64,000 nt of DNA, taken from NCBI GenBank assembly GCA_963668625.2, contig CAXXKA010000008.1, forward strand, positions 544,001-608,000, read 5' to 3'. The DNA comes from an uncultured candidate division Zixibacteria bacterium (GTDB lineage: Bacteria; Zixibacteria; MSB-5A5; UBA10806; 4484-95). Under the pieces are notes generated by a model. That model saw nothing but the letters and a program-made list of their open reading frames with translations, ran no database searches and was not told where the DNA came from. Numbering within the stretch: position 1 is the stretch's first letter; every line of letters starts with the position of its first letter. This document shows, one piece after another, positions 10,179 to 14,724 of this stretch. The position numbers and the translations under genes are program-made.

Positions 10179-10997
10179 ATGGGAAATTTTAAATACGTAA
10201 TCTTTACCGATCTGGACGGCACTCTTCTGGATAAAAAGACATTTCATCCTGGATCGGCGCTAAATACTCTTCAACGATGCTATCAATCAGATATACCCGT
10301 TATATTCGTTTCTGCTAAAACTCGAGTAGAGATAGAGTCGATACGCAGCGAATTAGATAATTTCCACCCGTTCGTCTCGGAAAACGGCGGCGGACTATAT
10401 ATCCCCGATAACTTATTCGATCGACCGGCTGGGTTTTCCCACGTTGGACAATATTGGGTAAGATGTGCCTCGGAGACCATAGCCGAATTGCGGCGGGCGT
10501 TGAAAGAGATTGCCGATGACCTGAGTATCGATATCAGGAATTTCAGTGATATGCATCCGGTCGAGATCGCTGCAATCACCGGTCTCGATCATATCAGGGC
10601 GAAACTTGCAGGACAGCGCGAATTCGATGAGCCTTTTCAAATAGTAGATGAGACTCCGGAGAAGATCGAAGCGGTTATAGCGCAAATCGTCAATCGTGGC
10701 TACCGTCACACCGAGGGCGGGATACTTCATCATATAACAGGTAATTTCAACAAAGGCGAGACGCTCGAGAACCTCAAACATCTATACGAAAATGACAATC
10801 CGAGCGTGAAATTTATCGGGTTGGGGGACGCTTTCAATGATATTCCCATGCTGAAAATCGTAGATCACCCGTTTCTCGTGCGCAAAAATGATGGTAGCGT
10901 TGAGCAAGTGGATGGTCTTGACAAGCTTAAGGTTACCTCGGGTATTGGCCCGGATGGTTTTGTTGAAGCGATTGAGCCGTTTTTGGGGAATAGCTGA
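10179..10997 (+). CDS. mpgP: Mannosyl/glucosyl-3-phosphoglycerate phosphatase (HAD IIB)
   Basis: FTDLDGTLL, SAKT, ENGG, REFDEPF, GLGDAFND. Confidence 0.85.
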   Translation: MGNFKYVIFTDLDGTLLDKKTFHPGSALNTLQRCYQSDIPVIFVSAKTRVEIESIRSELDNFHPFVSENGGGLYIPDNLFDRPAGFSHVGQYWVRCASETIAELRRALKEIADDLSIDIRNFSDMHPVEIAAITGLDHIRAKLAGQREFDEPFQIVDETPEKIEAVIAQIVNRGYRHTEGGILHHITGNFNKGETLENLKHLYENDNPSVKFIGLGDAFNDIPMLKIVDHPFLVRKNDGSVEQVDGLDKLKVTSGIGPDGFVEAIEPFLGNS

Positions 10998-11129
10998 TTT
11001 CGATAACTCACGAATAAGCTTCTCGTCACACATTATGTATCATATTTCCCTTTTTTGTTTTGTGATTGATCTTAAAATGTATATACTGACTTATTATATT
11101 GTTAAAAAAGGAGATGGTACGATAAAAGC

Positions 11130-11346
11130 ATCTTGCTAATCTATTCTGTTGGTGTTAGAGCTTCGGTAATGAATTTCTAACTGGAGCGGATAGGTTATAG
11201 GCTGAACTGAATGCTTGAGGCCAGACCTCGTAAAGGAGATTAATCAGACCTGTAACCGAATTGCCACCATAAGGCAAAGACCTTGAATAGGAGTTTGGTA
11301 GGCGCCGACAGAGAGTCTGCTCCAGTGATAACCATAGAATGGAGCA
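11130..11346 (+). ncRNA. Putative IS110 bridge RNA
   Basis: Structured left end (ggttataggctga/tcagacctgtaacc, ttgcc/ggcaa, tgctcca/tggagca stems) containing AAAGGAG (target-like), ATAGGAG and ACCAT (donor-like); boundaries approximate. Confidence 0.55.
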
Positions 11347-11351
11347 AGAAG

Positions 11352-12365
11352 ATGAGGTACTTAGGAGTAGACCTTCACACAAACAGTTTGACCGTGTGTT
11401 ACCTGACAGCCGGTGGTCGGGAGAGGATCAAGGAGTATCGGCTAAAGGATCTAAAGGAATTTAAACGAGGATTAAAAAAGACGGATTGTGTAGCGGTTGA
11501 GGCCACTGGCAACACTCGTTATTTCGTTGATGAGATATCGCATTTGGTCAAGCGAGTTGTTGTCGTCGATCCGAACAAATTTGAGATAATCAAATCATCA
11601 GTCAGTAAGACGGATGAAAACGATGCCAGGAACTTAGCCTATTTTATGAGCAAAGACATGTTGCCGAAAGCCCGATTAAAGACGAAAGATAAAGCGCAGA
11701 TCAGTTCACTTGTTGGGACACGGGACAAGCTGGTCAAGTTACGTACAGCTTTGAAGAATAAAATACACAACATACTCAATCATCATGGTATCAAGAGTAA
11801 AAAGGAGGCCTACTCCAGCAACAAGAGTTTGGAGCGGGTTCTAAAGATGAATTTTGATGAGGTTGTTTCTGTTGAGCTTGAGGTATTGGTTGATCAGATT
11901 CGCAGTTTGAATGAGGGGATAAAAAAGCTGGACAAACAGATAGAGGATCAGGGTCGCAAGTTGAACGGGCATAAGAACCTGACCAGCATCAAAGGAATCG
12001 GCAGCAAATCAGCTACAGTGTTGCTTTCGGTAATTGGTGATGTTGCTGATTTTTCGGACAAAGATAAATTGGCCTCATATTTTGGCGTAGTGCCGCGAGT
12101 TTCCAATTCAAACGAGATTCAGCATCATGGTCGGATTACCAAGCGTGGTTCTAAGATTGGTCGGACTACACTGGTGCAGTGTACGCTTGTTGCCATACGA
12201 TATAACCATTACTTGAGTAAATATTACAATCGTATAAAAAACCGTCGTGGCAGCGGTAAGGCTATCATTGCCACAGCCAGAAAATTACTGGGAATAATCT
12301 ATGACACCTTGAAAAATAATTGGGTGTTTGAAGATTTCCCTAACTTTGTGTTAGCAAACAGATAA
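11352..12365 (+). CDS. IS110 family transposase/recombinase
   Basis: YLGVDLH, VEATG, KTDENDA (DEDD RuvC-like); SIKGIG, ASYFGVVP..SNS, GRITKRG; ATG at 11352 with GGAG RBS preferred over the TTG start in the track. Confidence 0.93.
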   Translation: MRYLGVDLHTNSLTVCYLTAGGRERIKEYRLKDLKEFKRGLKKTDCVAVEATGNTRYFVDEISHLVKRVVVVDPNKFEIIKSSVSKTDENDARNLAYFMSKDMLPKARLKTKDKAQISSLVGTRDKLVKLRTALKNKIHNILNHHGIKSKKEAYSSNKSLERVLKMNFDEVVSVELEVLVDQIRSLNEGIKKLDKQIEDQGRKLNGHKNLTSIKGIGSKSATVLLSVIGDVADFSDKDKLASYFGVVPRVSNSNEIQHHGRITKRGSKIGRTTLVQCTLVAIRYNHYLSKYYNRIKNRRGSGKAIIATARKLLGIIYDTLKNNWVFEDFPNFVLANR

Positions 12366-12404
12366 CTGAAATTTGGAGTAGACTTTTATCATAGGAGTAA
12401 AATA

Positions 12405-13922
12405 ATGTCGGAAAAAGCTAAAAACGCGCTCGATGAATTAACCCGGGAAATTAAACAGATCAGCCTACTCGGTTCATGCTCGGCTTTGCTGGGATGGGAT
12501 GAACGTGCTTATATGCCGAGAAACGGCGCAGGTCATCGTGCGGAGCAGCACTCCCTGATAGCTGGGATGGCACATGAAAAATTCACCTCCTCGAAGATCG
12601 GCGATTTGTTGGGTGAAGTGGAAAACAGTGATTTAATCAGCGATCCGTTGTCAATCGCCGCGGTTAATGTTCGTGAAATCAGGCGAGCCTACGATAAAAA
12701 AGTGAAATTACCGAGAGATTTGGTCGAGCAGATCAGTAAAACCACTACGCTTTCGGAACATGCATGGGTGAATGCTCGCAAAAATTCCGATTTCACCGGT
12801 TTCGCGCCCTGGCTTTCCAAAATGATGGACCTTCGCATGCAAGAGGCCGAGGCGGTTGGATATAGTAATGAGCCATACGACGCTCTTCTGGATGATTACG
12901 AGCCGGGCGAGACCGCCGAAAATATCGCGAGCGTATTCGAAAACCTCAGAAAGGATTTGGTACCGTTGGTGGACGCCATAGCCAATGCCCCTAAAAAACC
13001 GGATGTCACCATACTCGAACGTGATTATCCGGTTGATTTGCAGAAGGTATTCGGGAAATCCGCCTCAGCCGCGATCGGTTTCGATTTTAACGGTGGCCGC
13101 CTCGATGTTACCACTCATCCGTTTTGCACCACTATCGGCGTGGGCGATATCAGGATATTGACTCGCTATAATCCCAACCACCTGGGGCAGGCTTTCTTCG
13201 GTACGCTTCACGAAAGCGGCCATGGCCTGTACGAGCAAGGCATGAATCCCGATCATTTCGGTACACCTATGGGAGAGACCATTTCGCTGGGTATACATGA
13301 ATCACAGTCGCGGTTGTGGGAAAATATCGTCGGCCGCTCCCGATCGTTCTGGCAGTATTTCTTCCCCCGTGCTCGCCAGGTCTTCTGGGATTCCTTAAAC
13401 GATGTCAGCCTGGATGATTTCTATTTCGCGGTTAACGATGTTCGTCCGTCTCTGGTGAGGGTCGAGGCCGATGAGGCTACCTACAACCTTCATATACTAA
13501 TCCGGTTCGAAATCGAGCACGCGATATTCAAGAAAGAGCTGAAAATCGAGGATATCCCCGGTATCTGGAACGAGAAATTCAAGAAGTACCTGGGTATCAC
13601 TCCCCCTGATGACGCCAACGGTTGTTTGCAGGATGTCCACTGGGCGGCTGGTTTGATCGGCTATTTCCCTACGTATACGCTGGGAAACCTCTATTCGGCC
13701 CAATTCTTCGCCAAAGCCCAAAAAGACCTTGGCAATCTTGACGAGCAGTTCGCAATGGGCAAATTCGATAGCTTGCTGGGCTGGCTGAGAGAGAATATAC
13801 ACAGCCACGGGCAGAGATACCGGGCGGAGGAGCTGGTTAAAAAAGTCACCGGCGAGCCTCTTTCTCATAGGTACCTGATCGATTATCTTAGGGAAAAATA
13901 TTCCCCTCTTTACGGTATCTAG
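12405..13922 (+). CDS. Carboxypeptidase Taq (peptidase M32)
   Basis: HPF, HESGH, HESQS, RVEADE, GCLQDVHW, GYFPTY. Confidence 0.93.
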   Translation: MSEKAKNALDELTREIKQISLLGSCSALLGWDERAYMPRNGAGHRAEQHSLIAGMAHEKFTSSKIGDLLGEVENSDLISDPLSIAAVNVREIRRAYDKKVKLPRDLVEQISKTTTLSEHAWVNARKNSDFTGFAPWLSKMMDLRMQEAEAVGYSNEPYDALLDDYEPGETAENIASVFENLRKDLVPLVDAIANAPKKPDVTILERDYPVDLQKVFGKSASAAIGFDFNGGRLDVTTHPFCTTIGVGDIRILTRYNPNHLGQAFFGTLHESGHGLYEQGMNPDHFGTPMGETISLGIHESQSRLWENIVGRSRSFWQYFFPRARQVFWDSLNDVSLDDFYFAVNDVRPSLVRVEADEATYNLHILIRFEIEHAIFKKELKIEDIPGIWNEKFKKYLGITPPDDANGCLQDVHWAAGLIGYFPTYTLGNLYSAQFFAKAQKDLGNLDEQFAMGKFDSLLGWLRENIHSHGQRYRAEELVKKVTGEPLSHRYLIDYLREKYSPLYGI

Positions 13923-14190: not shown

Positions 14191-14724
14191 ATGCCGGCAA
14201 AAAAGAAAGCGGCAAAGAAGAAAGTCGCGAAGAAGAAAACGGCAAAGAAAAAAGTAGCTAAAAAGAAAGTTGCTAAGAAGAAAGTAACCAAGAAAAAAGT
14301 AACTAAGAAGAAAGCTACCAAGAAAAAAGTCGCGAAGAAAAAAGTAGCCAAAAAGAAAGTAACCAAGAAAAAAGCCACTAAGAAAAAAGTAGCCAAAAAG
14401 AAAGTTGCTAAGAAAAAAGTAGCCAAGAAGAAAACAACCAAGAAGAAAGCTACCAAGAAAAAAGCCAAACGTAAACCGAATCCGGCTTTCATGGCTCCCT
14501 GGAATATTTCCGAGACACTGGCCGCGGTCGTTGGAAGCAAGCCGCTTCCGAGAACCGAGATCACCAAGAAGCTATGGGGTTATATCAAGAAGAACAAACT
14601 TCAGGATAAAGTACAGAAGACCATGATCAATGCTGATGATGTTCTGAAAAAAGTATTCGGCGGCAAAGCCAAGGTCAGCATGTTCGAAATGACCAAGCTG
14701 ATTTCCAAGCATCTTTCGAAATAA
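14191..14724 (+). CDS. Histone H1-like Lys-rich protein fused to SWIB/MDM2 domain
   Basis: 18 x KKK(V/A/T)(A/T/K) pentapeptides followed by [28 protein letters not shown]...[13 protein letters not shown]. Confidence 0.88.
14200..14469 (+). repeat. 15-bp degenerate coding tandem repeat (18 units)
   Basis: aaraaraaagtngcn-type units encoding KKKxx. Confidence 0.85.

Follow-up and report, generated by a model that had tools for sequence, protein, structure and literature searches.

How does a mobile element come to lie, copy after copy, between the ribosome-binding site (RBS) and the start codon of a gene? The question is raised by an IS110-family insertion sequence in a 64,000-nucleotide (nt) stretch from an uncultured candidate division Zixibacteria bacterium (contig CAXXKA010000008.1, positions 544,001 to 608,000). 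This stretch is here called the window, and all coordinates are given in its own numbering. An original prediction, made from the letters of the window, held that the left end of the element encodes a bridge RNA whose target guide reads as the Shine-Dalgarno (SD) consensus. The test of guide-target covariation that it proposed has now been run, and from homologue to homologue the two guide words vary together with target and donor. We consider it very probable that window 11114-11351 is a left non-coding end and that the bridge (seek) RNA encoded in it chooses where the element inserts. The system is a variant of the known bridge-RNA system and not a new kind of system.

Insertion sites of the element

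The genome holding the window contains 11 identical copies of the element, and comparison of their flanks sets its boundaries at 11114-12397 (1284 bp, including one AGGAG at the right end), with a left end of 238 nt and a right end of 32 nt. The element starts at 11114 (ATGGTA), not at 11116. In all 11 copies the junctions read AAGGAG/ATGGTACG on the left and CATAGGAG/N on the right; AGGAG is common to both, with no further duplication, that is, a short shared core without a target-site duplication beyond it. The encoded protein matches the Pfam families DEDD_Tnp_IS110 (PF01548, E 5.7e-13) and Transposase_20 (PF02371, E 5.4e-22), and scores 242.7 bits against a cutoff of 140 with the NCBIfam equivalog NF033542, 'IS110 family RNA-guided transposase'. 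The element and its surroundings comprise the following features.

11107-11113, + strand: host SD AAAGGAG, comprising the left half of the target and the bases common to target and donor, from the flank comparison of copies
11114-12397, + strand: IS110-family insertion sequence, 11 identical copies
11121-11128, + strand: 8-bp subterminal inverted repeat, left arm GATAAAAG, with the partner arm CTTTTATC at 12383-12390
11352-12365, + strand: transposase gene, 337 amino acids (aa), with its own GGAG at 11341-11344
12391-12397, + strand: right end ATAGGAG, the donor half plus the shared bases, restoring an AGGAG SD 7 nt before the ATG at 12405
12405-13922, + strand: M32 carboxypeptidase host gene, whose RBS is the target (Peptidase_M32, E 3e-186)

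AAGGAG directly precedes all 11 copies in the genome, and an ATG follows 5-7 nt past the right-hand GGAG in every case, opening a frame of at least 116 aa in nine copies and of 34 and 39 aa in the remaining two. The transposase is co-directional with the downstream gene in 11/11 copies. Among the unoccupied AAGGAG sites of the genome, 280 of 1563 (17.9%) have an ATG at this spacing, so the pattern is far from random. Because the right end terminates in AGGAG, each host gene retains an SD at the original spacing. Further, T occupies position +1 after GGAG in 9/11 occupied sites as compared to 21% of unoccupied SD-type sites (P 2.6e-5), and ATGAAT opens 4/11 occupied versus 5/241 unoccupied genes in a post hoc comparison. 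These two preferences hint at a further, unrecognised determinant.

The subterminal repeat arms bracket the 14-nt donor site in the joined ends. In the homologues, the subterminal words differ between elements and are nevertheless mutually complementary within each.

A predicted structured RNA upstream of the transposase gene

Homologues were scanned in one genome per species, and the best 80 of 160 relative-encoding stretches (52-64% identity) were used; these loci come from metagenome-assembled genomes (MAGs) and genomes labelled as more than 10 phyla. Their left ends share a common core of about 155 nt. In the window element, the left end folds at -81 kcal/mol against -57.9 +/- 4.2 for shuffled sequences (z -5.5; 0/200 shuffles as good). 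A consensus structure from an alignment of 39 distinct cores has 36 pairs, of which 21 show compensatory changes, and a covariance model built from it (R1) gives 78 matches, covering the window and 76/80 homologous loci. R1 has no match in the 10 distant IS110 loci (~30% identity) that were taken from the same phylum, and these are therefore uninformative on the guides. When 67 distinct rows are fitted to R1, an alignment that hence leans towards the model, 95.1% of cells are paired versus 86.2% in shuffles and at most 48.7% with partners slid, and 24/36 pairs change on both sides. Near-invariant G-U pairs, for example that of columns 30/79 in 39/39 rows of the core alignment and in 64/65 rows of the model-fitted alignment, identify the transcribed strand as the transposase strand. 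When 10900-12500 was compared with Rfam, allowing E values as high as 10, only two unrelated sub-threshold matches appeared (best E 0.94).

The long non-coding end encodes a predicted structured non-coding RNA, in which an outer stem of the consensus surrounds two pseudo-symmetric internal loops. The parts of the RNA in the window are as follows.

11176-11328, + strand: bridge-RNA core (model R1, 138 bits, E 2e-34)
11183-11190, + strand: outer stem P1, GGAGCGGA, with TCTGCTCC at 11316-11323; 6/8 pairs change on both sides
11193-11204, + strand: 5' strand of the target-loop stem P2, pairing with 11249-11257; 8/12 pairs change on both sides
11205-11216, + strand: 5' side of the target loop, AACUGAAUGCUU, a second guide family-wide, unmatched in the window copy
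11217-11229, + strand: target-loop inner hairpin P3 (GAGG CCAGA CCUC); 100% of cells paired, 4/5 pairs change on both sides
11232-11238, + strand: target guide AAAGGAG, equal to the left flank plus the shared bases; covariation at -7, -6 and -5
11239-11240, + strand: handshake-type AU of the target loop, equal to the first two bases of the element
11266-11269, + strand: donor-loop stem P4, ACCA, with UGGU at 11296-11299 (consensus pairs 112-115 with 158-161)
11270-11285, + strand: donor-loop inner hairpin P5; 5/7 pairs change on both sides
11287-11293, + strand: donor guide AUAGGAG, equal to the right end of the element
11294-11295, + strand: handshake-type UU of the donor loop; in 9/11 occupied sites the base that follows GGAG is the same as its first U
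11331-11335, + strand: second ACCAT, with a counterpart in 1/48 distinct left ends (the window element only)

In P2, a CUG pairs with the bases immediately 3' of the target guide. Hairpin P3 is followed by G-U, the guide AAAGGAG and AU; similarly, P5 is followed by A, the guide AUAGGAG and UU. The single-sequence reading had placed AAAGGAG at 11232-11238, ATAGGAG at 11287-11293 and ACCAT at 11266-11270 and 11331-11335, all of which are found there. It had also drawn a stem of GGTTATAGGCTGA (11193-11205) with TCAGACCTGTAACC (11244-11257) and an inner hairpin of GAGG (11217-11220) with CCTC (11226-11229), and both are kept through compensatory changes. The identities that it drew, of AAAGGAG with the left flank plus core (11107-11113) and of ATAGGAG with the right end (12391-12397), hold as well, as does a target-binding loop that precedes the donor-binding one.

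Some loci depart from this picture. In L022, L058, L080 and L087 the transposase and right end look intact, and the RNA position is unrelated or truncated (at most 47.9 bits or no match to the model); these may be decayed or rearranged copies. The clade member L021 lies on a 2.8-kb contig of a MAG labelled Bathyarchaeota archaeon and has a bacterial-type AAGGAG-N6-ATG target, for which either misbinning or a true archaeal host could account. In addition, window 11155-11182 and many homologues form a hairpin 5' of the core. Because its 3' strand overlaps the CGGAG of the outer stem, two mutually exclusive pairings are possible, and these alternative pairings might be relevant to RNA processing or switching.

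Covariation of the guides with target and donor

In the window, AAAGGAG occurs 11 times against an expectation of 7.9 +/- 2.8. A 7-mer of this kind in a 238-nt end is therefore weak evidence by itself, and a comparative test is needed. In all loci whose boundaries are defined, the 10 nt at the 3' side of either loop were tabulated against flanks and ends. Among 64 site pairs, the target guide is identical to the left flank in 54/64 at -7, 62/64 at -6 and 64/64 at -5, whereas permuted means are 31.8, 56.4 and 56.4, and 0/5000 permutations reached the observed values. At position -8 there is no relation to the left flank (15/64 vs 15.3 expected). Retargeted lineages carry matched changes in guide and flank: ACACGGAG with CCACGGAG, UAAUGGAG with AAATGGAG, AUUAGGAG with CTTAGGAG, UAGAGGAG with (T/G)AGAGGAG in two lineages, and UUGAGGAG with TGAGGAG. 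The misses are ten mismatches at -7 (e.g. L016, L017, L067 and L070) and a G-to-U change at -3 in L046. The target loop thus covaries with the genomic target through its 3' guide and, family-wide, through its 5' strand, as described below.

The donor guide is identical to the right end in 69/69 pairs at the sole variable position (56 A, 13 G), with AUAGGAG accompanying CATAGGAG and AUGGGAG accompanying CATGGGAG. Its position -8 gives no meaningful match to the right end, and the half of this second loop that faces the left end is without covariation. The two AGGAG words stand above chance because they occupy equivalent structural positions and covary with flank and end.

In IS621, according to the accessible text of Durrant et al. 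(2024, PMC11208160) and Hiraizumi et al. (2024, PMC11208158), two handshake bases pair with donor positions 6-7 after strand exchange, and cognate handshake pairing blocks exchange. In the present family, the dinucleotide after the target guide equals the first two element bases in 42/43 distinct elements (34 AT/AT and 8 AC/AC, with CT/AT as the exception). The donor-loop dinucleotide equals the first two bases of its own element in 0/43, as predicted by the IS621 rule. The T after GGAG in 9/11 sites also fits the first U of the donor-loop handshake pair.

Side observations concern individual targets. L069, L075, L077 and L079 form one lineage with the guide ACACGGAG, whose flank CCACGGAG is followed by more CACGGAG-like repeats that are not RBSs. 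These sites are without an ATG within 4-11 nt, and the 5' loop has changed to GGCUUGUGCCA; GGCAC(A) lies 8-13 nt downstream in L077 and L079, L075 has only GCAC at +1 to +4, and L069 has none. Within the element itself, AAAGGAG inside the transposase gene (11801-11807) is a full match to the 7-nt target guide, as is the guide DNA at 11232-11238, and none of the copies has an insertion at either word. AT follows the guide-coding word, and one may speculate that this makes it a poor target under the IS621 handshake rule. In L025 (2545-2580), a tandem second copy of the last ~16 bases (ACAAACATCATAGGAG) follows the right end, perhaps as the trace of a previous insertion or excision there.

The ACCAT words had been proposed to match the left end from two hairpin loops, and here the comparison gives a different result. 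In 23 distinct pairs, positions 3, 4 and 6 of the would-be donor guide with ACCAT agree with the first bases of the element in 10, 13 and 10 cases, against permuted values of 11.2, 11.4 and 11.7, and an unregistered longest-run test is also null (3.85 vs 3.85). The second copy, having a counterpart in 1/48 distinct left ends, was rejected as a guide and is taken as a chance word; in the single-sequence fold it forms part of a small hairpin stem and is not a loop sequence. The first copy is in a hairpin loop only in the single-sequence fold, and in the consensus its ACCA pairs with UGGU at 11296-11299. It sits where an IS621-type left donor guide would sit in the inverted frame set out below, and 5/7 donor bases are matched here. 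A stem strand is its best reading; that ACCA makes a short, invariant contact with the ATG(G) conserved at the left end is possible but unsupported.

The start-codon side of the target

The 5' strand of the target loop reads, family-wide, N-A-U and then about eight variable bases, and the spacers between SD and ATG measure 4-11 nt across the family. When 72 sites are registered on the ATG, its T and A find their complements at loop positions 2 and 3 in 97% and 82% of sites. Further, loop positions 4-7 show complementarity to the last four bases of the spacer (z 5.7, 3.9, 2.3 and 3.8), and the signal falls below z 1 at register offsets of 2 or 3. Over 40 distinct 5' loops the complementary fraction is 0.482 versus 0.315 +/- 0.026 (0/5000 permutations), and L044 and L052 have seven contiguous matches each. 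A core-anchored matrix of 5' loop against right flank is diffuse and partly compositional, whereas the start-codon-anchored register is clean. A shuffle test gave 3.73 vs 3.30 for antiparallel pairing (0/1000) and 3.48 vs 3.31 (p 0.035) for a non-physical parallel control; since the control is also raised, we rely on the ATG-anchored register and the collapsed-loop permutation tests.

From these alignments the family appears to read both the SD and the start-codon side. The failure of the original prediction to find a guide for the right flank TAAAA is thus borne out for the window copy, whose right flanks differ among the 11 copies, and does not extend to the family. Because the 5' loop of the window element matches none of its own sites, the association of 11/11 copies with an ATG rests on the 7-nt guide together with selection, or on something unseen: the element seems to act via this guide alone, with selection removing intragenic insertions, or via something unrecognised. 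As a separate observation, the 5' target loop holds UGAAU, which is identical, not complementary, to the ATGAAT strand of the occupied genes.

A proposed mechanism and its alternatives

In the proposed mechanism, the RNA would be made and bound by the transposase, which would carry out strand exchange. Each loop is made up of a stem, a 5' strand, an inner hairpin, an invariant G, one base, a 7-nt guide, a 2-nt handshake and the stem again. At the host SD, the 3' guide of the target loop, AAAGGAG, would base-pair with the transposase-antisense strand, and that of the donor loop, AUAGGAG, would pair likewise with the right end of the element. The AU after the target guide would pair with the AT adjoining the core in the donor, an IS621-type handshake. 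Read on the antisense strand, the arrangement would have the IS621 geometry, with a donor GTACCAT-CT-CCTAT (7 + CT core + 5) and a target NNNNNNN-CT-CCTTT, so that the 7-nt 3' guides would span the core and five bases. The recombination geometry looks conserved, with the RNA-transposase cassette inverted within it. Since donor and target share AGGAG, insertion would restore the SD and its spacing for the downstream gene. The element would then lie in a 5' untranslated region, where host transcription could read through the RNA, the transposase and the host gene. In the full form of this account, the bridge RNA of the clade reads the translation-initiation region as such, with an SD guide and an A-U/spacer guide, and the inverted cassette lands co-directionally. 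In the genome of the window the second guide would no longer match any site, and the element would be a case of natural half-site recombination, directed by a 7-nt word that a genome contains hundreds of times. We give this full form an even chance of being correct.

Several points weigh against this account. RNA production, the RNA ends and transposase binding are predictions from sequence. The five bases common to both junctions make it impossible to place the 2-nt core from the junction sequence alone, and the crossover would lie somewhere within AGGAG. No circle junction and no empty site was found in the contigs of four sequencing runs. The covariation counts include related sequences, and independent retargeting events are estimated at only about 6-8. 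The donor-loop dinucleotide is not significantly related to right flanks family-wide (26 and 25 of 67 vs 23.0 and 21.7 expected), and at 1/11 sites GGAG is directly followed by AT, which the handshake 'lock' rule disfavours. The 5' loop of the window copy, AACUGAAUGCUU, is unmatched to its 11 sites (0.36 vs a permuted mean of 0.315). Lastly, GRITKRGS (12108-12122) places Thr where ISCro4 and ISEc11 have the catalytic Ser of the SKxG motif, and the chemistry may differ accordingly. Thr stands at this position in 64/81 loci examined and His (IHKRG) in L023, L026 and L030; L017 and L024 read ITR-G, in which Thr is kept and the search pattern failed.

Could the AGGAG words of the left end be chance SD-like words, or the RBSs of small internal frames, with no role in targeting? 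AAAGGAG is indeed not enriched in the window, and sites of the AGGAG type are widely used, with 423/1563 unoccupied AAGGAG followed within 3-10 nt by a start codon that opens a frame of at least 80 aa. However, no ATG, GTG or TTG lies 4-12 nt after either word; both occupy equivalent positions of two covarying loops, and both covary with flank and end, even where the word has ceased to be SD-like (ACACGGAG). We regard this explanation as barely credible. Recognition at the level of DNA would make the internal flank and end words transposase-binding sites in double-stranded DNA, with no RNA involved. The words are identical to the DNA at both junctions, and an RNA is deduced for this organism from its genome. 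Against such a scheme stand the helices kept through compensatory changes and the near-invariant G-U pairs, which would be C-A on the other strand. Also, the protein satisfies a model named for RNA-guided IS110 transposases and, in the accessible literature, both relatives that were tested, IS621 and ISEc21/ISEc11, require the RNA. We rate recognition at the level of DNA as very unlikely.

The remaining alternative accepts the RNA and has it guide to AAGGAG only, as a half-site, the placement before start codons being due to purifying selection against intragenic insertions. The window copy speaks for it, since its 5' loop fits the 11 right flanks no better than permuted loops do and these flanks vary among copies; half-match recombination has also been reported for IS621 in the accessible text. 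Against it stand the family-wide covariation of the 5' loop with the pre-ATG spacer, in the overall fraction and in the in-register z values alike, the A-U at loop positions 2-3 opposite the AT of ATG, and the enrichment of occupied sites in this genome for T at +1 and ATGAAT. We rate this alternative as a serious one with somewhat less than an even chance.

Expression, mobility and neighbouring sequence

A bridge RNA encoded at the left end could be transcribed from a promoter formed when the ends of the element are joined in a circle. One promoter-like element falls within the left end.

11118-11123, + strand: -10-like TACGAT, in the circle 17 nt after the -35-like TAGACT at 12379-12384; 8/12 consensus positions

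Promoter-like pairs that straddle the junction with at least 8/12 consensus positions are present at 23/56 distinct junctions, and TAGACT/TACGAT is a candidate for such a promoter, directed into the RNA. Assembly of the source sample gives the element as a repeat contig of ~51x depth, as compared to ~6x for the flanks. Near-identical element copies occur in three other metagenome runs in other contexts. Downstream of the host gene, window 14191-14724 holds a frame for a lysine-rich repeat protein (KKKVAKKK...), whose C-terminal region resembles what we take to be a SWIB/MDM2-type domain.

Comparison with known systems

The accessible text on IS621 (PMC11208160, PMC11208158) describes a target loop whose 5' side carries the left-flank-identical guide and whose 3' side is complementary to the core and the right flank. 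As far as that text goes, the window element resembles IS621 in an RNA upstream of a DEDD/Tnp recombinase, in a long left and a short right end, and in a target loop followed by a donor loop. The loops are likewise composed of a stem, a 5' strand, a stem-loop, a G-N linker, a 3' guide (core + 5), a 2-nt handshake and a stem, with a G after each inner hairpin (compare G72 and G155 of IS621). The 14-nt donor (7 + CT + 5) with its flanking subterminal repeat and a -35/-10 pair that a circle would join are further likenesses. Unlike in IS621, the left-flank-identical guide (11232-11238) is on the 3' side, a difference in layout that the original prediction had anticipated and that puts RNA and transposase in inverted orientation with respect to the CT-core frame. 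Further differences are a subterminal repeat of 8 bp instead of 2-3 bp, a donor loop almost without a free 5' strand, and a target that is a generic translation signal where that of IS621 is a REP element. The protein is distant as well, matching IS621 at 49.8 bits over the C-terminal half only and having Thr for the catalytic Ser.

In IS1111-type seekRNAs such as that of ISEc11 (Siddiquee et al. 2024, PMC11187229), the accessible text places the RNA downstream of the transposase, in a long right end, with the top-strand complement 5' of the bottom-strand complement. The window RNA has the same order of guides, and the subterminal repeat GATAAAAG/CTTTTATC, at 8 bp, lies inside the 7-17 bp range given for IS1111 elements. 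Also, the transposase is of similar size (~340 aa) and resembles the ISEc11 Tnp over its full length (26% identity over 327 aa, 88 bits). Unlike in these systems, the RNA is upstream of the transposase, the IS110-type position, and the right end has 32 nt. An inverted cassette with an upstream RNA blurs the distinction between IS110 and IS1111.

Insertion between SD and start codon is itself established for IS900 and IS901 of Mycobacterium avium (PMC2942039, in its accessible part, citing Doran 1997 and Inglis 2003), of which IS900 is an IS110-family element. The window element shares this placement with both. The IS900 transposase is antisense to its target gene, with the target written CATGN4-6*CNCCTT, an arrangement that would correspond to the standard frame of IS621 at the same site; the window transposase is instead co-directional with the gene. 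The IS900 and IS901 proteins also belong to a larger size class.

The clade supplies an RNA-guide, sequence-level account of insertion between RBS and start codon, seen since the 1990s in some IS110-family elements, and indicates that a natural bridge RNA can be directed at a generic signal found throughout a genome instead of at a rare repeat. It offers about 43 natural sets of guide, target and donor, including retargeted lineages and a conserved handshake dinucleotide. Most specificity lies on the 3' loop strands, which bears on the minimal pairing of bridge recombinases and on the off-target behaviour of engineered systems. For annotation, an insertion sequence placed like the window element need not silence the downstream gene.

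Large surveys, as far as accessible, report many structural variants of bridge and seek RNAs. In the accessible literature on IS110, Shine-Dalgarno and bridge RNA, the only mention concerns a riboswitch, and the clade may already be listed in the supplements to Durrant 2024 and to the 2026 survey preprint. Already known from these sources are the bridge and seek RNAs of IS110 and IS1111 elements and the SD-start codon insertion of IS900/IS901. New relative to them are a target guide with the SD consensus and its covariation, a second guide that covaries with the start-codon spacer and has a conserved A-U opposite the AT of ATG, and an upstream RNA with IS1111-type polarity in an element that lands co-directionally and restores the split site.

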